In this document: one piece after another, positions 1,661 through 59,009 of the stretch
Layout: every line of letters begins with the position of its first letter
Position numbering within the stretch: position 1 is the first letter of the stretch
Source of the DNA: Escherichia phage A221
DNA: 64,000 nucleotides
Reading direction: 5' to 3' (one strand)
Sequence record: ON862890.1
Notes under the pieces: model-generated
Told to the model about the DNA's origin: nothing
The model's input: only the letters and a program-made list of their open reading frames with translations
Database searches by the model: none
Translations under genes and position numbers: made by a program

Positions 1661-2320
1661 ATGTCCTACTCCCTGAAGGGGCTGATGAAGCGCCCCGTCC
1701 ACACATTCTTTAAACCACCCGTCGTAAAGGGGATCTACCCAGCACGAGGGCAAATCTACTACGTCAAAGGCTCCAATGGTAGCGGTAAATCCACTGTGCC
1801 GTCTCAGCTGGCGGAGAGGGATCCTCAGGCGTATGTCGTGACCCATAACGGCAAGGTAATGCTGACTGTCTGTCCTTCGTTCAACGTGGTCTGTATCGGT
1901 AAATATGACAAGTCGAAGTCCAAGGGGGTTGATTCCCTGAAGGACACTGAGCAGATGTTGTTCGCGTTGTCTATTGCTGACCAACCAGAATACTTGAAAT
2001 ATGATGTGATTTTCGAAGGTATCATTCCATCAACATTATTGAGTTCTTGGATCCCCCGCCTGACACGCCCACCACGTGAATTGGTTGTGCTCTTTATGGA
2101 CACTCCCCTTGAAACGTGTATCTCCCGCGTTAAATCACGTAACGGTGGTGTGGACTTCAATGAAGGTCTGGTGGTCGAGAAGTGGGAGAGAGTTCATGAC
2201 CATCGTCAACGACATAAAGACTTGTTCCCTACGGTAGCTGCGGGTATGATGAAGTCTCACGGCCTAACGGTAGACCAGGCTGTGATGGCATTCCTCTGTC
2301 GTGATTTTGGGAGTATCTGA
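1661..2320 (+). CDS. P-loop nucleotide kinase (candidate modified-dNMP kinase)
   Basis: Walker A GSNGSGKST; GGAG RBS; stop overlaps start of downstream TS-family gene. Confidence 0.55.
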   Translation: MSYSLKGLMKRPVHTFFKPPVVKGIYPARGQIYYVKGSNGSGKSTVPSQLAERDPQAYVVTHNGKVMLTVCPSFNVVCIGKYDKSKSKGVDSLKDTEQMLFALSIADQPEYLKYDVIFEGIIPSTLLSSWIPRLTRPPRELVVLFMDTPLETCISRVKSRNGGVDFNEGLVVEKWERVHDHRQRHKDLFPTVAAGMMKSHGLTVDQAVMAFLCRDFGSI

Positions 2321-3366
2321 TGGAAATCAAAGCAATTAACAACAATGACATGCTGAAGCAGGCTGTCTTGGCTATCCGTGAATTCGGGATCGAATCTGAT
2401 CCTGGTAATGCTGAAATAAATACTGATAGCACCCGCTTCCTTGATGGCGTGACCATAACCGTCGCCGACATCCGTGACCGCTGGCTATCCGTTGAAGGTC
2501 GTAACTCATCGGCTATCGCTGCCATCGGCGAGACCTTCTGGGTTCTGTCCGGGCGCGATGACGTTCGCTTCCTGTCCCGCGTGTTGCCCCGCGCCGCCAA
2601 CTTTTCCGACAACGGCCACACATGGCGAGCCGCTTATGGTCCGCGTCTGTACGCCCATGGCCAGCTGGATAGCGTTATCAACCGCCTGCGCAAGAACCCA
2701 AACACTCGCCAGGCGTACCTCACCATCTATGACCCGGCTCTAGATTCGGATGCTGGTCTGGCGAAGTTCAGCGAGAGCGGCGAAGCGAAGACCAAGGACA
2801 TGGTGTGTAACTTGGCTCTGTTGTTCGCCATCGTTGAAGGTCGTCTGAACCTGACGGTCATCAATCGCTCACAGGATGTTCTTTGGGGGATGAGTTCAAT
2901 TAACTTCATTGAGTTCTCTATTCTTCAGGAAGTGATTGCTCGGGTGCTGGATGTTGATGTCGGTCAGTACAAGCTATTCTCTAATAATCTTCATTACTAC
3001 AACAATGAAGTCAGCCAGAAGCAGCTGGGCAAGATCACGAAGGACACCAAAGTAGAAGCTGGGTTCATCAACTCCATGATTCACTTCACGAACGTGACCA
3101 ACCAGAACCATATCCGCAATCTGTTCACTGGTGTGCTTCATCACTGTGATATCGGCAGCCCGTGGGAAACTGTGGTCGCCCACCTGAAGGAATATGATGC
3201 TGATCGTGGCCTGATTGTACAGATGGCGTACTGTCTGCACTGCAAACTGAACGAAAAGCTCATTAACCTGGACCTGATTCAGGATCATGGCTTGAACATC
3301 GCGCTCACCCATTCCCCGGTTGACCGCAAGATCGTTGATCCTAAGTTCCTGGAAGGTGTAGTATGA
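2320..3366 (+). CDS. thymidylate synthase-family pyrimidine hydroxymethylase-like enzyme (T4 gp42-like)
   Basis: TS-fold motifs: NTRQAYLTIYDP, catalytic Cys in DMVCN, NRSQDVLWG (compare T4 dCMP-HMase RSNDVVFG), NNLHYYNN; 348 aa, longer than ThyA. Confidence 0.65.
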   Translation: MEIKAINNNDMLKQAVLAIREFGIESDPGNAEINTDSTRFLDGVTITVADIRDRWLSVEGRNSSAIAAIGETFWVLSGRDDVRFLSRVLPRAANFSDNGHTWRAAYGPRLYAHGQLDSVINRLRKNPNTRQAYLTIYDPALDSDAGLAKFSESGEAKTKDMVCNLALLFAIVEGRLNLTVINRSQDVLWGMSSINFIEFSILQEVIARVLDVDVGQYKLFSNNLHYYNNEVSQKQLGKITKDTKVEAGFINSMIHFTNVTNQNHIRNLFTGVLHHCDIGSPWETVVAHLKEYDADRGLIVQMAYCLHCKLNEKLINLDLIQDHGLNIALTHSPVDRKIVDPKFLEGVV

Positions 3367-42965: not shown

Positions 42966-44201
42966 TCAGCGTTTCAAGAGTGCCATGAGGTTGACGCTGC
43001 TGGACTTCGACTTGTCCTCAACCTTACGCACAGGCATCTTCAGGTTCGTATATACTTCGGACGGTTCCCAGCGCGTACCCTTTTGCAGGTGCCAGATATG
43101 CAGAGGAACACCAGTCTCAAAGAACACAGGCATCTTCCACTTCTGGACGCCTGGAACGTGCCCTGCAGGAGCCTTTTCGCACAACAGGGTATCTGGCAGC
43201 CAGAGCGAACGGGCTTCCCAGAGCGCTGCGCAGGAGTATTCAGGCCAGACGCGTTCCATGTAGTCTATCTCATCCCAGGTACGCTCTGCGTCCCACCCGA
43301 TGTAACGAGTATTCTTCAGTCGGAAGAATTTCTTCAGCCAACAAGCACCGGAGGTTTCAAAGTTCAGGCGGTTGATGAACGTCAGGTGCCCGAACTCAGC
43401 CACACAATCCTGGAACGCCTGCTCAAGGTCGGCCTCAAGGATGTCACACTCTTCATCCGTGATAGGGCAACTGTTGATCTTTTTCTTCCCGTGTTTAGTC
43501 ACCCAATCGTCACGGTTGGACAAGAACGCCGCGCCATTACGGTTGGACTCGCTTCCATCACGATCACGCAACATGAAGCCAGGGACGTCAATGGTGTATT
43601 CGTTCCCGAAGACCATGTTCAGGGCTTCCAGGAAGTTCCAGGCGCTCAGGCGACCGAAGTATTTCCAGGACATCGCCGTGTCCCACAGCTGGGTGAATTG
43701 TTCTGTCTTATCGATGCACACCAACATCCCACGGAAAGCGTCATATTGAGTACGGCCAGCCAGCCAGTCAATATAGGACTGAACACACGGAATCATCTTG
43801 GACTTGCGGTAGCGACAGTCGGTATCGAATCGCATGCGATCAAAGTTCAGATTATACCAATCAGAGAAGCGCTGCATCTCTTCCTTAGACTGAGGCGGCA
43901 CAGGGAACTCACTGTAGATCGTCCACGGCCCGACGGCGTTATAGCAACAACCCCACAGGAATGCCATCCAGATCTTGCGCTCGACTTTCTGTTCGAGGCT
44001 GATGCCTTCAGTGACTTCGATCGCATAGTCCATCAGACGCATCTGCTGGTTGTGCTCTTCTGTGTAGGACAGCGCCTCCACCCAAGCCTTGAGCAAGTAC
44101 ATGCGATTCTCAGGCTTGCGATAATCAACAGCCAGGTCAATCGGGTACTTCCATTCAGCCGGAGGCGTATAGCCCGTCGGCATTTTAGATAAATGATGCA
44201 T
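42966..44201 (-). CDS. hypothetical 411-aa protein; candidate DNA base-modification enzyme by context
   Basis: Large soluble protein, Trp/Cys-rich, no motif recognised; same transcription unit as P-loop kinase 44759-45664. Confidence 0.5.
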   Translation of the reverse strand: MHHLSKMPTGYTPPAEWKYPIDLAVDYRKPENRMYLLKAWVEALSYTEEHNQQMRLMDYAIEVTEGISLEQKVERKIWMAFLWGCCYNAVGPWTIYSEFPVPPQSKEEMQRFSDWYNLNFDRMRFDTDCRYRKSKMIPCVQSYIDWLAGRTQYDAFRGMLVCIDKTEQFTQLWDTAMSWKYFGRLSAWNFLEALNMVFGNEYTIDVPGFMLRDRDGSESNRNGAAFLSNRDDWVTKHGKKKINSCPITDEECDILEADLEQAFQDCVAEFGHLTFINRLNFETSGACWLKKFFRLKNTRYIGWDAERTWDEIDYMERVWPEYSCAALWEARSLWLPDTLLCEKAPAGHVPGVQKWKMPVFFETGVPLHIWHLQKGTRWEPSEVYTNLKMPVRKVEDKSKSSSVNLMALLKR

Positions 44202-44564: not shown

Positions 44565-44762
44565 TGGTTCCTTGAATATTTTGTAACCAGCAGCGCCGAT
44601 AGACATCACCGCGCCAATACAGTACATCACAGTCACGTTCAACTTCTCTGAGGTTGTTAAGTCCAGAGGGGTGAAATGATAGGCTAGGGCAGTACACATT
44701 GAAACGGCTGCCATAACCAGACCAATGAACAACAGATAATTAGACAACCGTTTCATGATCAT
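44559..44762 (-). CDS. small membrane protein
   Basis: Two TM helices in 67 codons. Confidence 0.4.
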   Translation of the reverse strand: MIMKRLSNYLLFIGLVMAAVSMCTALAYHFTPLDLTTSEKLNVTVMYCIGAVMSIGAAGYKIFKEPK

Positions 44763-45664
44763 CCCTTCTTCATCAGGTCAAGGAGAGAGCGCGACGCTGC
44801 CTTCGTTGCTTCTGGCTGGGCGCTCGCCTTGGTTTTAGTTTTGGATGCCTTCTGCGGCTTCTCAGGCACTCTGTGCGCCAAAGGATCATCACCGCCGACC
44901 TCACGGGTCATTGGATTGGTTTCACAGTAGGCATAAAAATCTTTGATGTCAAGGTTAACCGCGCCGATATCCATCTGATAAGCGATAGCATCCCCGACAA
45001 CCCAAAGAGGGGCATCAAACGGCATGACTGCCAGTTCGCTACGTGGATCCATTTCCCACTCATTCTGAGAAGGTTTTGTATACTCAACATCCTGCCCACT
45101 GTACACGTCTGCCAAAACGTTCCACCCCAGTGCCAACATTTCGGCCTTCGACTTCTCAAACTCCTTGTAGTAAGATTCGTTGCGCGACCAGCCGGAGTTC
45201 CCTGCTTCTTTACCAGAGCGACCACGGATACGAGCATCGTACTGATAGCGGTCGGGGTACGCAAAGTACAGCAGCGCCAATGATTCAATCGGATAGTTCT
45301 TGAACATCCATTCAGGACGCCATTTGTCCGATAGCATGAGAGGTTCTCCCTCGCACACCAGAGTGTATCCCTGAACCAACCAGCACTTGATTAGATCACG
45401 AGCAATATCGCCTGAGCCTGTAGCAGCATGGATTGCATCCATTGAAGTCCAGGAAGCCAGGCCGGATTTGTTAGACACGGTGTACTGTCCAACGAAGATT
45501 AACTTCAGCTCTCCGAACTTCAAGCCAAACGGGCGAGTCTTGTCACCAACGGTGTAGGTCAGTTCGGTAGGCTCCAGCTTAGTGCGCAGCCATTCGATGA
45601 ACTGGACCACTCTCGTACCCTTACCCACGCCACTTGTTCCCTTCACTACAATTATTTTAGCCAT
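44759..45664 (-). CDS. P-loop kinase (candidate DNA-level 5-hydroxymethyl-pyrimidine kinase)
   Basis: Walker A KGTSGVGKGT; 301 aa with Lys/Ala-rich tail; function inferred from context only. Confidence 0.5.
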   Translation of the reverse strand: MAKIIVVKGTSGVGKGTRVVQFIEWLRTKLEPTELTYTVGDKTRPFGLKFGELKLIFVGQYTVSNKSGLASWTSMDAIHAATGSGDIARDLIKCWLVQGYTLVCEGEPLMLSDKWRPEWMFKNYPIESLALLYFAYPDRYQYDARIRGRSGKEAGNSGWSRNESYYKEFEKSKAEMLALGWNVLADVYSGQDVEYTKPSQNEWEMDPRSELAVMPFDAPLWVVGDAIAYQMDIGAVNLDIKDFYAYCETNPMTREVGGDDPLAHRVPEKPQKASKTKTKASAQPEATKAASRSLLDLMKKG

Positions 45665-46343
45665 TCATTATTCTCCAACCGAGACATGTTTTAGCCCTAC
45701 CTTTCAAGAGATTCGTTATATTACCAGAAGGGAGGCCATATTGAAGTTCCATATCGCATCTTCTTAACTCAACAATGCGATCATCTTTGTGCTGCCATTT
45801 GTAAATCGTTTCATCGCGGCCAGGACCAATGTCTATCAGGCCAAGAGCATGCAACTGTTTCCTTGTCTCACCTGCTCGCCTCTGGGCTTCTGAAGGTGGA
45901 GGTAATGGCTTCTTTATCACTCCCTCGGAAATCAGTTTCCTTCTGGTTTCACCACCCTTTCTTTGTGACTCAGCCGATATGCGGGGAGGTGGCTTGATCT
46001 TACCCTCAGCGATCAAACGTTTGCGGGTTGCAGCACTCTTTGCGGATGAATTAGGCGTGGCCAATGGAGGCTTCCCACCCCCGACGACCATGTTGTAGCA
46101 CCACCCAGAGTCAAGGATCTCCTGGCAGACCAGTTCAGACTCTATCTGAAGGATAACCGAATCTTTCCCTCGGAACAGAACTTCAAACTTGAACTGGTCT
46201 TCACCGTATTTCTTGAACGCTCGTTGTAATGCAATGCTCCCCTGACCACACTTATGCTCAGCCAACCGCCTATCCGGTTCTGAGGTGACACCGATATAGA
46301 ATTTATGATTGACGAGATTCGTGATCAGGTAAAGCGACAGCAT
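45657..46343 (-). CDS. GIY-YIG homing endonuclease (free-standing)
   Basis: LYLITNLVNHKFYIGVTSEPDRRLAEHK GIY-YIG motif; repeated Gly/Lys-rich NUMOD-like linkers. Confidence 0.8.
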   Translation of the reverse strand: MLSLYLITNLVNHKFYIGVTSEPDRRLAEHKCGQGSIALQRAFKKYGEDQFKFEVLFRGKDSVILQIESELVCQEILDSGWCYNMVVGGGKPPLATPNSSAKSAATRKRLIAEGKIKPPPRISAESQRKGGETRRKLISEGVIKKPLPPPSEAQRRAGETRKQLHALGLIDIGPGRDETIYKWQHKDDRIVELRRCDMELQYGLPSGNITNLLKGRAKTCLGWRIMNG

Positions 46344-47837: not shown

Positions 47838-49419
47838 TCAACCTTTCTTCTTTTGCATCATGGCAAGAAGGTTCACACGGCGCTTGTGTGACCAGCCGAC
47901 CACGTCGAGGATAGACTGAATCGGATCAATGAAGGACTTCTCAAAGGCCGCCTGATAATCCACCCATTTGCCCAGACCAAGTTCCTCGGGGAAGAACTCA
48001 GGATATGCAAAGTAGTTCTGCCCAAACGGGTTGCCCGGCTTCAACAACACCATCTGTACCTTATCACCCGACTCGATCATCGGTAGACCCAGATCTTCGT
48101 TCTTCTCAACCAGACGGTTGTAGCCCACACACGCCTTGGCAGCAAAATGAGCACCAGAGATGAACGATCCGTCAGCAGCCACACACTTCTCTACGTCGGA
48201 CACGCCTGACGCCTTGGCGATATCGTCTACAGAGAGTTTCATGTACTCCTCTTTGTACTGGGAGATGAGCGTCTGTACTTCCTCTTCGGTGCCGAGTAGG
48301 ATCTTCTCATAGCACTTGACAAGGCGCTCACGACACCATTCCGGCGTGGTGGACTTGCGGGCTTCCAGACCTTTGAACTTGATCTTCGGCTTCTCGTACT
48401 TGATACCCTCACTGTCGTACACGGCCATGGCATACATCTTCTTGGCTCGCCAGACAGCGGCTGACGCAATGACCTCACGCTCCCACACCATGCGCTGTTC
48501 AAATCCGTTCATGGTGTTACACAGAAGCTGTGCCCACTCATTGGTCTTCGGCTGGTAGTTGTCTTTGATCCATTGGTCGATATTATCAACCATAGCATGA
48601 TGGTCAGTAACATCAGACCACAACTGCTTGACAAGACGCTCAATGCAGATGTAGTTGGAGTCGGTATCCCCTGCGATGACGAAGTCCTGGCCTGTTGTAC
48701 CACACAGCTTGTTCAGATAGTCATCAGTGTAACGCTTGTTCCACTTGTTGATCAGCTGACCGGATGTGGTGATGGCTTCGGCAATGTTGAGGTTGAAGTA
48801 CTCTTTGAACCAGACGTTCGAGATAGCGCCATAACCTGCGTTCATCAAGATCTTCAGACCTTGCTGTAGGGTATCTTGAGCGACGCCCAGGTCTTCCCAC
48901 TTCTTCATCACTTCGGTCAGGGCATCAAGATCAATGTTCTTGTGCTCTTCATACCACTCTGGGTCATAGTAGCGAGACTTCATGGCAGACTCAAGATGGA
49001 AGTCGCCCTTCGACATCTCTTTACACCAGCCAGCCCACTGCTCATACTTCAGACCCTTGGCCTTCTCTACTTTACGGTCGCTGTAGATACCACGCATGAT
49101 TTCAGACAGGAACGACATCTTCTCGTTGCTGAAGAATTGAACGTTCGGCGTGAACGACACGTTGTAGCGGCGCAGGGTTTCAAAGTGGAACTCACCCAGG
49201 GCAACCAACTCATCAACAACCTGCAGGCGTTCGTCAACCGCACGCAACAGCTTGTCGTGAAGGGCTTTCATCAACCGACGTTTGTGCATCGGCGTTGCCA
49301 TGTTATTCATCTGAGCAGCCAGCTCTTCACACATAGCCTCAATAATCTCGCGGCGCTGGTGTTTGTCGCCAACGATAGTCTCTGGACCGAGGTTGTATTG
49401 CTGAATGATGTGTGGATAT
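47838..49419 (-). CDS. 43: DNA polymerase (family B) exon 2
   Basis: Begins inside motif A (YPHIIQQYNLGPETI); KILMNAGYGAISN and VIAGDTDS (motif C); track ORF 47838-49466 includes 47 nt of intron. Confidence 0.85.
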
Positions 49420-49884
49420 CGCTTATGTTCAGGGATGCTCGCTATTTCATCCCCCGTGTTCGTCATTCAGTTTACCGAACACTGCTGTATGTCACCATAC
49501 AGGCCAGACTATATCACAATCTCCAGAACTGTCTAGAGATTCTCTCCATTTCGAGGCGCTTGCCCCTACTCTACTCGCTTCAGATCAGACGCTTAGTCGT
49601 CGGTCTTGCTTTCGATAGTCGTTGAACCTTGTCACCCACTACTTCAAGGAAATCATCTGGGTTTAACCCAGCGTAACCAAAGAGTCGTTTGAAGTTTCTT
49701 GCCAACTTGCCCCACTCATTCTGGCAAACATTTCCTTCATGACCTTACTCCTTCACCGAGGTTACAGAGTATTTAGATCTTCGTGGCCGACCTTGGCTGC
49801 TGATTATCTCTAAAGAGACTTCCCAGCAATTAAGAGAGTTATTCGATGGTTGTCGCCAACCAAAGCCCCTATGCTGCTAACTTA
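49420..49884 (-). ncRNA. group I self-splicing intron (no ORF) in DNA polymerase gene
   Basis: On minus strand: P-like AATTGCTGGGAAG, Q-like AATCAGCAGCC, R-like GGTTCAACGACTA, S-like GATATAGTC (P7 GACTA/TAGTC); exon 1 ends in U, intron ends in G; splice restores DLNSLYPHII. Confidence 0.75.
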
Positions 49885-51302
49885 AGGGAGTTCAAATCTT
49901 CCGAGAAGACCCAGAAGTAGATTCCTGGTGTCACATCCATGACGTATGCACCCTCAAAGTCGGTCGGACCATCGTATACACGCTGGATCTTAGGCACTAT
50001 CCCCTTCTCGTACAGGCGATAGTAGCACATGGCCAGCCACGGAGCCACAGTGCCCAGACCGTCTTCATAGTTGGACTTGGTGCGGTAGGCCAGGACGAAC
50101 ATCAGTTGGAGCAGGCGCAGCTTCTGTTCAAGTCGCCATACCAGCTTAACGTCTTTGATACCATATCGGGTGTGTTTGCAGTAGTCGTTGAAGTACAGAT
50201 CAAAGAGCGACTTGCTCTCACTGTAGTCCATCTTCTTCTCACCCAGCTCACAATACGCAATCCAGTCAAGAGAGTAGCGTTCACGGGTGGTGTACGTGTG
50301 TTTCTTGTAGATCTGCATATAATCGAGCATAGGGCAACCCACGAACTGATACGTCGTGATATCGCCCTTCTTATCGCGAATGATACGCTTCTTAATGATA
50401 CCCCAAGGACTGAGGCGCGACGTTTCAGCCTCACCCAGAACCTGATTCATGCGCTCAACAAGATACGGGCTATCGAACGTTTCAATGTTCCAGCCTGTCC
50501 AGCCATCAAACTGACGCTGTGACCAGAAGTCTAGGAACGAGCGCAGCAGATCTTGTTCGGTGGTGAACTCCTGATAAACAACCTCAAGGCCGCCGATCTC
50601 TTTGTCTTCGGTGTCGTATGCGAATTTGTTACGATCTTTGGCACAGGGCATACCCCAGACCATGAACTTATTGGTCGCCATATCCTGAAGCTGGATCAGG
50701 GTAATGGGGAACGCCGCATTCATGTCTTGGGTGATCTTGCCGTTGCTGTCAATGATAGGGAACTGATCAGTGACGTTGTTGCTGATGAAAGAACCAGGGA
50801 AGTGCTCACGGACAAATTCATGGTTGGCCAGCACTTGTTTATGGAAGCGGCGAATGCGCGCCTCATTCCCTTTGAACGTCTGCTGCTCAATGGTTGGGTG
50901 AGGGAATGGACCTTTGGTCATCTTTCCGTCTTTCCACCCGGCGGAGAACACTTCGATATCGAGGTTAGCAATATGGATGTTGGAATAATCCGGCTCAATC
51001 TTTCCAGGAAAGCTATGGGCGATGAACTGGTATGCATAATCGGTCTGTCCGTAAATGGCAGCACCCTGGACTTCCTTGTACTCTTCAAGATAGTTGTCAG
51101 CGTCACGCATGGAAGGGAACTGCTTGGCTACCAGGGGTTCATTGAGAAGACCGACCTTTTCAACATTTGAATAGTCAGCCGTGGGTAAATAGAGAGTGGG
51201 TTCGAATTTCTTTTTCAACAGACGGCGATTACCCATGTCATCTGCAATTCGAATCAACAGGTCATTGCCCCTTCGGGCAACGTTCGTATAGAAAACGGTC
51301 AT
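49885..51302 (-). CDS. 43: DNA polymerase (family B) exon 1
   Basis: N-terminus aligns to T4 gp43 (MTVFYTNV..); Exo I ANLDIEV, Exo II WNIETFDSPY; ends in motif A DLNSL. Confidence 0.85.
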
Positions 51303-53571: not shown

Positions 53572-53595
53572 GAAAGGGGCTTAATGCCCCTTTTG
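53572..53595. terminator. bidirectional rho-independent terminator between convergent genes
   Basis: AAAGGGGC-ttaat-GCCCCTTTT between stops at 53570 (+) and 53596 (-). Confidence 0.6.
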
Positions 53596-54054
53596 TTATT
53601 CTTCCCAGAAGTCTTCGTCGTCCCCGACAGCAGCCAGTTCCGTGTCCAGTTCTTCATCGGTAAACGGTGGCAGCACCCCATTCTGGATCAGATAATCCAT
53701 CTCATCGTCTTCCAGCTGCAGGTCAGTGGCAATATACAGCGCTCCACTGCCCTCTTCGTCCGTCTCGATGCTATACGAAGTGTATGGCACCCCATTCACC
53801 GTGATAATGATAGACGTTGGATCCTCGGGATCTACGTGAGCCTCGAACGGTACGCCGTCAATCGGTGCATCTTCCAGGAAGGTGGCAAGGGCTACGGCGG
53901 CGCGGACAACATCAGTGCCTTCAACGCCTGCATAGATCTCTTCCGCGCCCGTCTCTTCACGATCAAACAGCTCAATCGTGATACCGTCTTGAACACCAGT
54001 CCATACAGGGATGTCATTGGTGTATTCTGATTCAAACAATTTGGAGGTTGGCAT
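53596..54054 (-). CDS. acidic hypothetical protein
   Basis: 152 codons, Asp/Glu-rich. Confidence 0.45.
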   Translation of the reverse strand: MPTSKLFESEYTNDIPVWTGVQDGITIELFDREETGAEEIYAGVEGTDVVRAAVALATFLEDAPIDGVPFEAHVDPEDPTSIIITVNGVPYTSYSIETDEEGSGALYIATDLQLEDDEMDYLIQNGVLPPFTDEELDTELAAVGDDEDFWEE

Positions 54055-54198: not shown

Positions 54199-55473
54199 TC
54201 AGGAAGGGGTGAAGTCGTTTACAGGAACTGTTTCAGGGATAGCCAGCTCAGGGCATGCTGCCTTCATCGGCTCTATGTATGGCTTGCTACCCACAATCCA
54301 GAACAGAGTGTTCTCATTGAGCACCTCTGGCTTGTTCTGCTGGATCCAGGTCATGACCTTGCCTTCATAGCGAGGATGCAATTCGATATCACCCCACTGA
54401 TATTCCATCAGGTCATTGTAACGAACCCAATTAGTGGTGTGAAGATCCCAATGGTGTACCTCAAAGCGAGGAAGCACGACCTCTGGCTCTTCCTTCTGCC
54501 TGATACCACTTAGGAGGCCAGCCAGAGAAACGCTCTTAGAGGCATGCTGAAGCTCCTTCTTGCCGTGTACATAGTCTGGGTTGTCGTGATAGCGACGGGT
54601 GAAGTCGACAATGTGCGGTAGATTGGCATGTTTGCCGATGATACGCAGACGGCTCTCAATGAAGCCCAGGCGGTTCGGACCGATGCCAATCAGATACACA
54701 CGCTTCAGATTAGGCTTCGGATGCATTGCCAGCCCGGTCAGAATGCTTGTGCAAGAGTTGCACGATCCGGCTGGGATAATCAGATCGGTAATATGGTCAG
54801 GGATGTTGGCAACCTGCTCGCCACCCAGCATATGGAAGCCAGCGATGCGCTCAGGAGAATGCGCTGTATGGTCGAGGGTGATACCATATTCCAGATAATA
54901 CGCCTTTGGATTCTGTTGTTCGATCAACTTCTTACAGCGCGGCTGGATCGTGCTGTTGTAACCCGAGCCGACGAAGTTGAACTCACTACCAAACCAGGCT
55001 GACATTGCCACCATGTCGTGGTTCATACAGGTGGTGGGTTTGGTCGCTCCGAGTACAGTGGTTGTCTTGCCGCCGAAGTGCCGAGAGACTGCCGTCGCCA
55101 TAGGGGACTGCGGACTACCAACGACAGTACCATGGATGATGTCAGGGGAGCCTCCGGTCTTCAGGTGCTCAACCATCAACCAGATGGCCTGGCGCAACTT
55201 ACTGCCATTGATGCCCTGCTTGCCATTCATATAACAAGATAGCGGCGCGAAGTAATCTTCACGCTTGAACCAGACCTGCTGGTTAGTTTCGGGGTTGGCG
55301 ACGAGTTCACACGGAGTGTGTTTGTAGAGGTAGTCTTCCCAGTGAATATGTTCACGATGAAGAGAGAGGACATCAAAAATCGTTTTGTATGGACCTTTCC
55401 CTAACGTGTGGAACGGGATATACGTGCGGAACGGGATATATGGAGCGAGGGGTTGTGCAGCGAATTTGTTCAT
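54199..55473 (-). CDS. PLP-dependent enzyme, tryptophan-synthase-beta-like fold (candidate modification enzyme)
   Basis: GINGSKLRQAIWLM resembles fold-type-II PLP Lys motif; later Gly/Ser-rich loop IPAGSCNSCTS; AGGAGA RBS. Confidence 0.45.
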   Translation of the reverse strand: MNKFAAQPLAPYIPFRTYIPFHTLGKGPYKTIFDVLSLHREHIHWEDYLYKHTPCELVANPETNQQVWFKREDYFAPLSCYMNGKQGINGSKLRQAIWLMVEHLKTGGSPDIIHGTVVGSPQSPMATAVSRHFGGKTTTVLGATKPTTCMNHDMVAMSAWFGSEFNFVGSGYNSTIQPRCKKLIEQQNPKAYYLEYGITLDHTAHSPERIAGFHMLGGEQVANIPDHITDLIIPAGSCNSCTSILTGLAMHPKPNLKRVYLIGIGPNRLGFIESRLRIIGKHANLPHIVDFTRRYHDNPDYVHGKKELQHASKSVSLAGLLSGIRQKEEPEVVLPRFEVHHWDLHTTNWVRYNDLMEYQWGDIELHPRYEGKVMTWIQQNKPEVLNENTLFWIVGSKPYIEPMKAACPELAIPETVPVNDFTPS

Positions 55474-55542: not shown

Positions 55543-56187
55543 TTATTTCTTGAATAAACGAAGGAACTTCATCATGTTTTCCATGAAAGTCGGCTTCTTG
55601 ACCTTTTGTTTTACCGGAGCGCCCTGATCATTCAGAACACGATTGGCCGGAGGAGTTGGATTCAAAGATTTAATTGCCTGATTCAAATCGGAATTATCCA
55701 CGACACCCACTTCTTCACCGACCGTAACGCATGGTTTGATTAGAACGGATTTCTTAGACTGCTCATACTGATGAGCGATATCCAGATATTTCTTGCGCTC
55801 TGCGTAGAAATCAACAGACTTGACCTTGCGACGACGCCAATTGGCGCTTTCTTCGCCATAGAAATCATATCCGTTTCTGATCAGCCAGTGCACGGCTTGT
55901 TCAAACGAACCGAAGACCATAAGTGGAGCGCCCTGGCCTTTCTCAGATTGTTCCAGGCTACCATAACCCATCAGCACAACCTGGCCTTTGATACTCAAAT
56001 CAAACGTCATACCAAGGTTCGGGATGTTTTTATCGCGGCGGAAGAACCCGCCATCACGGTAGACGTAAACAGGCGACAGGAACTCATTCAGAGTACGCTT
56101 GACACCCTTGTATTGGAAGAGTCTGACAATTGGAGGGGTGTCATGGGAAATCACTTCGTTCAATTCCCAGATAGAAACATTACGCAT
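55543..56187 (-). CDS. hypothetical protein
   Basis: 214 codons. Confidence 0.5.
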   Translation of the reverse strand: MRNVSIWELNEVISHDTPPIVRLFQYKGVKRTLNEFLSPVYVYRDGGFFRRDKNIPNLGMTFDLSIKGQVVLMGYGSLEQSEKGQGAPLMVFGSFEQAVHWLIRNGYDFYGEESANWRRRKVKSVDFYAERKKYLDIAHQYEQSKKSVLIKPCVTVGEEVGVVDNSDLNQAIKSLNPTPPANRVLNDQGAPVKQKVKKPTFMENMMKFLRLFKK

Positions 56188-56227
56188 TAGTGTATCCTCA
56201 AATCTATGATAGGGGGTTAACGGTTAA

Positions 56228-56255
56228 ATTTTAAACCCCCTTTGTATCATTGAAC
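56228..56255 (-). promoter_or_regulatory. promoter candidate GTTCAAT-N15-TAAAAT
   Basis: Minus-strand box 56249-56255, -10 56228-56233, upstream of gene starting 56187. Confidence 0.3.
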
Positions 56256-56309
56256 AAACTATGATAAAGGAGGACATGCTTGGGCCGATAAGAAGATAAT
56301 AAGACAGGG

Positions 56310-56340
56310 ATAAAAAGAAAGCCGGATAGGATATCCGGCT
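56310..56340 (-). terminator. rho-independent terminator ending tRNA transcription unit
   Basis: GCCGGATA-gga-TATCCGGC then UUUCUUUUU on minus strand. Confidence 0.55.
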
Positions 56341-56557
56341 ATACCACATCGATGGGATGGGTTGAAAGACTACACGCTTGCACTGGTACTACCCTATGGG
56401 AGAGCGCGTCAGGAGTCGAACCTGAAGTCGTCGACGTAGAGAAAGCTATTTGCATTTCACTATCCTCGCCTCGATTTTCTTAACTTCCTAAACACCCCGA
56501 TTACGAGAGAGTCGACATGCACATCTTCTAACTCTTCAGGAAGTCACGCCCGTAATT

Positions 56558-56646
56558 TGGCGGAAGGTGAAGGATTCGAACCTTCGGGGGCTAAAAGCCC
56601 CACTCGATTAGCAGTCGAGTCCCTTAAACCTCTCGGGCAACCTTCC
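56558..56646 (-). tRNA. tRNA-Ser (anticodon GCU)
   Basis: Cloverleaf folded by hand: acceptor GGAAGGT/ACCTTCC, anticodon loop CTGCTAA, long variable arm, T-arm GAAGG-TTCGAAT-CCTTC, CCA encoded. Confidence 0.85.
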
Positions 56647-56899
56647 AATTTGGACGGGCTTCACACCCGATTGAGCATTTGATCTGCCGTAGCCCAACTC
56701 CCCGCGCTTCTCAGCGCCGATTGGTTAACTGGCGACCAGTGCCTTCTGGTTCGATCTCCTGGAACTTTACAGGCTTTGCGCCCGACCATTTCTGGAAGTT
56801 GGGGCATCGTTTCCGATGCGGAGTCATCCCCATTTTATACACAGCTGGCTGCAACGCTTACTGTGTTTGTCGGAGTGTTATGTTTCACACCCCTTAACA

Positions 56900-56976
56900 T
56901 GGTGATCCTGATTGGGTTTGAACCAATGACCAATGAATTATGAGTTCACTGCTCTAACCAACTGAGCTACAGGACC
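56900..56976 (-). tRNA. tRNA with CAU anticodon (Met, or Ile if lysidine-modified)
   Basis: Acceptor GGTCCTG/CAGGATC, D-arm GCTC-AGTTGGTTA-GAGC, anticodon loop CTCATAA, T-arm ATTGG-TTCAAAC-CCAAT, CCA encoded. Confidence 0.85.
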
Positions 56977-58990
56977 AAATTATTGTGTACCAACCAAGGA
57001 CTGTCAACCCTTTATCCCGTTTGTGCATGATCAGTTCATGCATGCCTGTTTGTGCGCCTCACGGCATGCGCTTCTGTGGGTCTTTGGCTTGCACCATAGC
57101 CTCGCCACAGGCGTTTATTTTTCCAGGGCTTTCCACTTACAAGTCTTAACCAGACCGGGATACGGGCTTGTAAGATCGGGTTGGACACAACTTTGATAGC
57201 TCTGGTACTAAAGATCCCGCGTCACCCATAGACATGGTTTATAAAATCCAGAGCCATCAAAGTTGCAACCAAATGTTACAACTCGCAGCTTCCATACAGA
57301 AGCAACTTGTCCTCTAACGCTCGGACCAAACTAGGCTGGCTGGCTGGTTGATTCAGAGCCGCTGGTTGCTCCAGCAAGCATGGGTTGATAGCCCGGCAAC
57401 ATAGAATCACCCAAAGATGAAGAACATTCATGACTCACATCACACCACGAATGGTCTGAAAGAGAATCGAACTCTTTAAATGCTCTTCATTTTGTGAACT
57501 TGAGAATACTACGCCTGTCTCGGGTTTCCCCTTAGTTCGGCCTCCCAGTCCTCGCCGCGCCGGGTAGCTAACCCTGATGGCTCGTCTGCTACTGAGTTCT
57601 TCTTGGTGCCCACCAGTGTCCGGAATGTGTAGGCATCGCAATCTGCAAGGCATGGTCTATTTCACCCAATGCTCTCTAAAGTTCACAAATCGAAGTGCCC
57701 TGACTCAACAGTATGGCCCAATATGCTGTTATCGTCCACCGGATTGGCCGCCAAATTTGTAGATCAACCTTTGGGTTTAAGATAAATTGTCAAGGCACTT
57801 CGATTTGTGTGCCCTTCACCTGCCAGGGATCAGGGCTGATGGCAAGACTTCGCTCACATCTTTCAAGATACTCGTGAGAATATCCTCAAAGATGTGGAGC
57901 CGTTTTAGGGAGTCGAACCCAAATGCTTGGCCAGCGCTGACCTTACATCCCATCTGACTTAGGCAACCCACCTCTGCTTACTCAGGAGCTTATCCCCTTT
58001 GGACAGTCAGATATAACGGCATTGTCGACGGGAGATTATTAATCACACCCTCCCGTCTATTTTAGTGCGCCGAATTTGGTGATGAGGAATCGGAAGACCT
58101 CACTGACTTATAGGCTGTTACGCCGCCATCAGAACTTCGGAATCATTAGCAGTTATTTGCTTGGTCAGTTTCTAAAAACCCGCAAAGTCACTCACAACGA
58201 AAACGAAAACCTGTTTGAGCACAAGACACCATGTCCTGGGTTCACATCGAAGTGTTTGTCTAATGCCCAAACAGCTTTTCGCTTCAGTGGGTTAACTATA
58301 CTTTGTAACCCGTTATTGATAAAACCTTTTATTTTTGTTGGCGAGGGTATCACCATCGATTTACCGGAACTTACGCATCCGGCCTCGCCTGTTGGTGCTC
58401 CTTCGAATCCGGGAAGATCAGTAGGAACTATGAATCAAGTTAATTCAACCAACAGGAACCTTGTTGCCCTTTGACGCAACATTATGAACCCTCTATGGAA
58501 GACTCATAATGTTGTCGGCGTGATGGAGATTAGCGCCCCCGACCTCCCCTTGTGTTGGTGTCGACTTGCCAACGGGGTGCTCTCTGATTCTGAGCTAATC
58601 ACGCTACAACAGGGAGTTTCGTTCTCCGACGGTCAAGTGCGTCCACTGACACCATGCAAGGTGGATATTGACTTATGGAGCCGGAGTCCTCGTCCTAGGA
58701 CTGTGCTCGGCCTCAGCCTTTACACCGCTGGTAGCCCGACCCTTTACACCATAAAATTTACTATACTACAGCCCAGCTAATTTGAAAAGTCCTCTCCTCT
58801 TTGAGCTACACTGCCCACAGCAGTGCGGACGAACCTTCACTCAAAACCGGATGCGCCGAAGTGGGCGTCTGTTTACCGGACTGATCGGGTAGACCCAGGA
58901 GAGTAAAGGTAATCCCGATCAGGAGGATGAGGAGTAACATCATGTAAAACATAGTGTTCCCTCCCTTCCATGCAACTAACTTTACTGCAA
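56977..58990 (-). other. ORF-free structured region upstream of tRNA genes (candidate non-coding RNA)
   Basis: About 2 kb without credible ORF on either strand; long complementary segments 57188-57205/57248-57265 and 57684-57699/57794-57809. Confidence 0.3.
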
Positions 58991-59009
58991 TTATTTATTG
59001 AATAAAGCG

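Follow-up and report, generated by a model that had tools for sequence, protein, structure and literature searches.

An open reading frame encoding 424 amino acids, at positions 54,199 to 55,473 of the 64,000 nt of Escherichia phage A221 analysed here (sequence record ON862890.1; this whole stretch is referred to below as the window), raises the question of what a PLP enzyme does in a phage. A preliminary description of the locus, made from the letters of the DNA, had proposed a decarboxylase or lyase that trims an amino-acid-derived group on a hypermodified base. Trimming of this kind, by decarboxylation, is the published function of gp226 of phage ViI, to which the window protein is 90% identical (PMC8989533). 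By analogy with ViI, the window gene very probably encodes the last enzyme of the thymidine hypermodification pathway of the Ackermannviridae, a PLP-dependent decarboxylase acting on DNA. The window protein is expected to do as gp226 does because of this level of identity and because the set of pathway partners is found in the window.

The gene and its reading frame

The gene, whose strand had been left unstated, lies on the minus strand and has the following features.

54199..55473, minus strand: gene of the putative decarboxylase, orthologue of ViI gp226 / Vi01_182; uninterrupted open reading frame, 424 aa including Met1
55473-55471, minus strand: start codon ATG
54199-54201, minus strand: stop codon
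55481..55484, minus strand: Shine-Dalgarno sequence GGAG, 7 nt upstream of the ATG, read from the sequence
55405..55440, minus strand: tandem duplication of 18 nt (YIPFRT/YIPFHT) with a perfect seed, at the 5' end of the gene

This is clearly a genuine gene, far beyond chance, because the protein matches PHROG 3650 (listed function: unknown) with E=1.5e-237 over residues 29 to 424, is matched by tblastn in 347 phage records and has 710 homologues in a large protein collection. The N-terminal extension of residues 1 to 28 is basic, with a net charge of +3, and poorly conserved, being absent or unalignable in most homologues. Since the conserved part begins near residue 29, the true start codon may vary between phages.

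Escherichia phages PC3 and PH4 match the window region at 99.5% identity; both are classified in the Ackermannviridae, subfamily Aglimvirinae. ViI, a Kuttervirus, belongs to the subfamily Cvivirinae.

Orthology with gp226 of phage ViI

The equivalence of gp226, Vi01_182 and YP_004327553 was taken from the record note 'orf00226' together with Table 1 of PMC8989533. Between YP_004327553 and the window protein, 380 of 421 aligned residues (90%) are identical. The ViI protein likewise has 424 residues, and its lysine is numbered K92 as in the window protein. The differences are substitutions at about 10% of the residues and a sole indel of 6 aa in the disordered N-terminus, which results from the 18 nt tandem duplication. 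The gene neighbours in ViI are common to the window, with gp224-like and gp227-like open reading frames and a DNA polymerase gene nearby, and the ViI pathway partners also have counterparts in the window. The two phages differ in subfamily, the window phage being of the Aglimvirinae and ViI of the Cvivirinae, and the function is assigned by homology in the window but by biochemistry in ViI.

That biochemistry is direct. Purified gp226 is yellow and absorbs at 410-425 nm, as a PLP chromophore does, and it is labelled 'PLP-dependent decarboxylase' in Table 1 of the study concerned (Lee et al. 2021/22, NAR; PMC8989533). When gp226 is left out, the nucleoside obtained exceeds the native base by 44 u, and pure gp226 turns DNA containing 5-O-serinylthymidine (O-SerT) into the native nucleoside of 301 u. 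When the O-SerT carries 13C3/15N label, exactly one carbon is lost. The product is 5-(2-aminoethoxy)methyl-dU (5-NeOmdU), generated by decarboxylation of O-SerT in DNA. In the same study, a Phyre2 model on PDB 1J0A led to the prediction of K92 as the internal-aldimine (Schiff-base) lysine. In earlier work, 5-NeOmdU was rebuilt from five lysates, those of gp67, gp160, gp226, gp243 and gp247 (Lee et al. 2018, PNAS; PMC5889632).

The base has been detected by mass spectrometry in ViI, CBA120 and phiHS2 (PMC5889632, PMC8989533, phiHS2 preprint). The last of these is another E. coli phage of the Ackermannviridae, for which the preprint (2026) reports 5-NeOmdU by LC-MS and lists a PLP decarboxylase homologue. 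A 2024 review states that conservation of the modification genes extends throughout the Ackermannviridae (PMC11721090). The gene family is also combinatorially diverse in metaviromes (PMC8989533).

Fold and database matches

A resemblance to ACC deaminase, D-cysteine desulfhydrase and the beta subunit of Trp synthase had been suggested for the protein, and it is real but remote. Pfam PALP (PF00291) matches residues 51 to 267 with E=1e-6, although its score of 28.7 bits is below the gathering score of 35 bits. The anticipated membership of this family is thus supported by the E-value, by the profile comparison given below and by the fold, and falls short on the Pfam score. A precomputed PF00291 assignment is present on several close homologues. 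No NCBIfam family was matched at E<=1, and a single-sequence phmmer search of the PDB found nothing at E<=10. A match to Pfam 'AID' (E=0.42) was dismissed as noise.

An AlphaFold2 model made from the alignment of 53 homologues has a mean pLDDT of 88.9 and a pTM of 0.87. Low confidence is limited to residues 1-28 and roughly 300-335, with pLDDT below 50 over much of residues 1-26 (1-7, 12-17 and 22-26). In a Foldseek search of the PDB with this model, the best 50 matches listed are all fold type II PLP enzymes with a probability of 1.00. They are led by D-cysteine desulfhydrase (best E=1e-11) and ACC deaminase, at 14-16% identity. The model has the two alpha/beta domains of the TrpB-like fold. 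From the sequence profile and the model together, the scaffold appears to be that of the ACC-deaminase-like branch of fold type II. The fold is held in common with ACC deaminase and D-cysteine desulfhydrase (1F2D, 1J0A, 1TZK, 4D8T) at TM scores of 0.65-0.70 normalised on the target, and the Gly/Ser loop aligns at an equivalent place. Compared with the enzymes of this branch, the window protein is longer by 28 aa at its N-terminus and by a variable insertion at 283-337, which comprises about 55 aa. It also differs in that, by analogy with gp226, its substrate would be the DNA polymer and its reaction decarboxylation, not ring-opening deamination or beta-elimination.

A second point of comparison is gp52 of Pseudomonas phage M6 (YP_001294560), which is PLP-dependent and is, alongside gp226, the other characterised decarboxylase of amino acids borne on thymine in DNA. 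Both proteins carry the lysine motif S-K-[LI]-R, and the predicted lysine of gp52, K36, aligns with K92. The homology is remote (hhalign E=9e-5, 59% probability), and only profile comparison relates the two proteins, a BLASTP comparison of the window protein with gp52 being not significant. The M6 protein has 278 aa against 424 aa in the window. Its substrate is C-alpha-glycinylthymidine, of the 5-NedU pathway, in which the C-linked glycine is made by a radical-SAM isomerase that is missing in the Ackermannviridae (PMC8989533).

Predicted active-site residues

Three groups of codons in the gene correspond to predicted active-site residues.

55198..55200, minus strand: codon of K92, predicted PLP Schiff-base lysine in GINGS-K-LRQ; from alignment and PMC8989533
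54754..54768, minus strand: codons of G236-S237-C238-N239-S240, predicted PLP-phosphate loop; from alignment and model secondary structure
54358..54369, minus strand: codons of Y369-E370-G371-K372, the 'YEGK' motif of the ACC-deaminase/D-cysteine-desulfhydrase branch; from alignment

Both of the sequence signals named in the preliminary description were found again. The candidate PLP-lysine motif is GINGSKLRQAIWLM, with its lysine at K92, and the Gly/Ser-rich loop is PAGSCNSCTS at residues 233-242. Conservation was assessed in the alignment of 53 homologues, which extends down to about 41% identity. There are 31 invariant positions, including N89, G90, K92, R94, S120, Q122, G236, Y369, E370 and K372. 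In the loop, where G236 is invariant, S237, N239 and S240 are conserved in at least 90% of the homologues. The variable segments are the N-terminal 28 aa and residues 283-337.

The profile of the 53 sequences reaches ACC deaminase 1F2D (E=3.4e-6) and also D-cysteine desulfhydrase. In the alignment with 1F2D, K92 is paired with K51, the lysine to which PLP is bound in ACC deaminase. S120-P121-Q122 is paired with S78-N79-Q80, and T-G-S-T-T is the counterpart of the G236-S-C-N-S240 loop. A second short stretch, which alone is not significant, places HP-x-Y369-E370-G-K on DPV-Y295-E296-G-K, so that Y369 and E370 correspond to Y295 and E296. If the catalytic set of ACC deaminase is taken to be K51, S78, N79, Y295 and E296, the window protein keeps the equivalents of the lysine, the serine and, within the stretch that alone is not significant, the tyrosine and the glutamate; the equivalent of N79 is P121. 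To our knowledge, decarboxylation is unusual on a fold type II scaffold and not a typical reaction there. With this and the proline at position 121, the details of the active site are uncertain.

On the evidence of the alignments, K92 probably carries PLP as an internal aldimine. In the model it is at the N-terminus of the helix 90-105, and the G236 loop lies between the strand 230-235 and the helix 238-250. The segment G236-S240 would bind the PLP phosphate, as suggested by alignment and model. A structure prediction had been named as the check on the placement of the lysine. The model returned a confident fold type II structure with K92 at a helix N-terminus, and the position of K92 within a PLP pocket is a prediction from alignment and topology.

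Pathway partners

The preliminary description had linked the enzyme to kinases elsewhere in the window. This link holds, in that two of the pathway enzymes encoded in the window are 5-hmdU DNA kinases. The partners were located within the window by tblastn with the ViI proteins and by Pfam; percentages are identities to ViI.

1661..2320, plus strand: gp67-like 5-hmdU DNA kinase; 88%; Pfam HMUDK PF18748, E=1e-108
2320..3366, plus strand: ThyA-family putative dUMP hydroxymethylase, orthologue of ViI orf00066; 76%; Thymidylat_synt, E=1.4e-15
42966..44201, minus strand: serine:DNA transferase (aGPT-Pplase2), orthologue of ViI gp247; 89%; ADDT PF18724, E=7e-60
44759..45664, minus strand: 5-hmdU DNA kinase 2, orthologue of ViI gp243; 82%; HMUD2 PF18747, E=2e-150

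The orthologue of gp160 (aGPT-Pplase1) maps outside the window. The role of the ThyA-family enzyme as a dUMP hydroxymethylase that supplies 5-hmdU is taken from the literature (PMC8989533, phiHS2 preprint), as is the production of the O-SerT substrate by the gp247 type of amino acid:DNA transferase (PMC8989533).

The association of kinase and PLP enzyme is also seen in the metagenomic homologue P0114 (620 aa), in which an N-terminal HMUD2 kinase (PF18747, E=2e-27) is fused to a PLP domain of the gp226 type that has 40% identity to the window protein. This fusion is independent genomic evidence for a functional link between the two enzymes, and the same kind of kinase-PLP fusion has been reported (PMC8989533).

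Two genes that abut in ViI, the gp240-like gene and the gp243-like kinase gene, have an open reading frame of 228 aa for a GIY-YIG endonuclease between them in the window (45657-46343, minus strand; Pfam E=5e-8). It is probably a free-standing homing endonuclease that has inserted in the hypermodification gene neighbourhood.

Gene neighbourhood

The decarboxylase gene appears to be the middle one of a minus strand unit of three genes, consisting of a gp224-like gene, the PLP enzyme gene and a gp227-like gene.

55543-56187, minus strand: gp224-like open reading frame, 214 aa; no Pfam match
53596-54054, minus strand: gp227-like open reading frame, acidic, 152 aa; no Pfam match
53573..53593, minus strand: terminator-like hairpin ending the three-gene unit; match of a consensus scan only, which is no proof of function

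The two flanking open reading frames have 63-65% identity to ViI, compared with 90% for the decarboxylase. Having no Pfam match and not being known pathway members, they were left out as pathway partners.

The description of the surroundings as a replication region is fair, since about 3 kb separate the PLP gene from the end of the DNA polymerase gene. This family B polymerase gene (47847-51302, minus strand) is split, with an interruption at 49419-49883; residues 1-473 of ViI PolA map to 51302-49884 and residues 474-997 to 49418-47847. A group I intron is present at 49485-49872 (Rfam RF00028, 58.8 bits against a gathering score of 50). The ViI polymerase gene is uninterrupted, unlike that of the window. 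In other Ackermannviridae, the same intron is about 1.18 kb and contains an HNH endonuclease, which is annotated as I-LimII in Dickeya phage LIMEstone1. The window, PC3 and PH4 have a 465 nt version without the HNH endonuclease open reading frame, and in the PC3 annotation the two halves of the polymerase are separate CDSs.

On the other side of the gene, about 2.8 kb of the window (56200-59000) contains no open reading frame with homologue support. The only tRNAs detected in this segment are the following two; related phages annotate further tRNAs (Tyr, Asn) there. Roughly 2 kb of it (57000-59000) has no assigned feature.

56558-56646, minus strand: tRNA-Ser(gct)
56900-56976, minus strand: tRNA-Met(cat)

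Rfam matches at 56.2-59 kb to plastid UTR models antisense to the tRNAs, to mir-3119 and to permuted tmRNA are far below their gathering scores and were taken as chance.

Alternative functions

The resemblance to enzymes of amino acid metabolism raises the possibility of an auxiliary metabolic enzyme that works on free amino acids as an ACC deaminase, a D-cysteine desulfhydrase or a threonine ammonia-lyase. ACC deaminase and D-cysteine desulfhydrase are indeed the nearest solved structures by both profile and fold, and names for homologues in UniRef and GenBank include 'threonine ammonia lyase', 'threonine dehydratase' and 'carboxylate deaminase'. However, identity to these enzymes is no higher than 14-16%, their NCBIfam families are among those that gave no match, and a proline is present at the position aligned with N79 of ACC deaminase. 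Moreover, the 90% identical orthologue decarboxylates serine borne by DNA, as determined by direct biochemistry (PMC8989533), and the gene is found alongside that of a 5-hmdU DNA kinase, in some cases as a fusion with it. A role in free amino acid metabolism is therefore highly improbable. Identity as ACC deaminase, D-cysteine desulfhydrase or threonine dehydratase was rejected because no curated model matched, the equivalent of N79 is proline and the orthologue decarboxylates. A protein with the PLP fold that is catalytically inactive and has a structural or regulatory role would agree with the sub-threshold Pfam score. It is the least probable of the explanations, close to negligible, given that 31 positions, the lysine among them, are unchanged in all 53 homologues and that the orthologue gp226 binds PLP and is catalytically active (PMC8989533).

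It could also be that the enzyme is of the same family but that in the Aglimvirinae it acts on another tethered group or by another PLP chemistry, with the resulting base being other than 5-NeOmdU. The phage subfamily does differ from that of ViI, the family shows combinatorial diversity in metaviromes (PMC8989533), and the N-terminal 28 aa and residues 283-337 are variable. Against this, the decarboxylase and the serine transferase are 90% and 89% identical to the ViI enzymes, every invariant residue is retained, the modification genes are conserved family-wide according to the review (PMC11721090), and 5-NeOmdU has been found by mass spectrometry in ViI, CBA120 and phiHS2. Any novelty would be mechanistic, in that an ACC-deaminase-like fold type II scaffold would have become a decarboxylase whose target amino acid is attached to double-stranded DNA in the major groove. 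That the gene is novel on this ground is very unlikely, and an Aglimvirinae copy that gives a product other than 5-NeOmdU is less likely than that.

Proposed reaction

As a decarboxylase of serine tethered to DNA, the window enzyme would act at the end of the following series of steps. The ThyA-like hydroxymethylase would supply 5-hmdU, which would then be built into the phage DNA, and the 5-hmdU DNA kinases would add phosphate to the 5-hydroxymethyl group. The gp247-like transferase would swap this phosphate for the side-chain oxygen of free serine, giving O-SerT. In the resting decarboxylase, an internal aldimine would link PLP to K92. Transaldimination by the free alpha-amine of the serine on the DNA, which projects from C5 of the pyrimidine into the major groove, would then give an external aldimine with PLP. 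The carboxylate would be released as CO2 while PLP takes up the electrons, and C-alpha would then be reprotonated and the internal aldimine restored by K92. The product would be 5-NeOmdU, a base with a positive charge that is inhibitory to many nucleases. Unlike in M6, an isomerase is not needed, because the O-linkage keeps the amine of the serine free (PMC8989533). It may be speculated that contacts with the DNA are made through the 283-337 insertion or the basic N-terminus.

Annotation and significance

Publications already cover the enzyme, the pathway to which it belongs and its conservation in the Ackermannviridae. The window gene is a member of the gp226 family with a published function, thus the finding is already known and the useful outcome is a corrected annotation. 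In PC3 the gene is annotated as 'hypothetical protein', and in other records it is a 'threonine dehydratase', a 'putative threonine ammonia lyase' or a 'pyridoxal-phosphate dependent enzyme'. In most of the 347 phage records the gene is labelled either 'hypothetical protein' or misleadingly, for example as 'threonine ammonia-lyase'. An apt name would be PLP-dependent 5-O-serinylthymidine (DNA) decarboxylase, and the practical value of the assignment lies in this annotation.

The preliminary description reached a correct and non-obvious function, for which the sequence alone sufficed. The interest that remains is structural, in a fold type II PLP enzyme that would decarboxylate a substrate within the DNA polymer.
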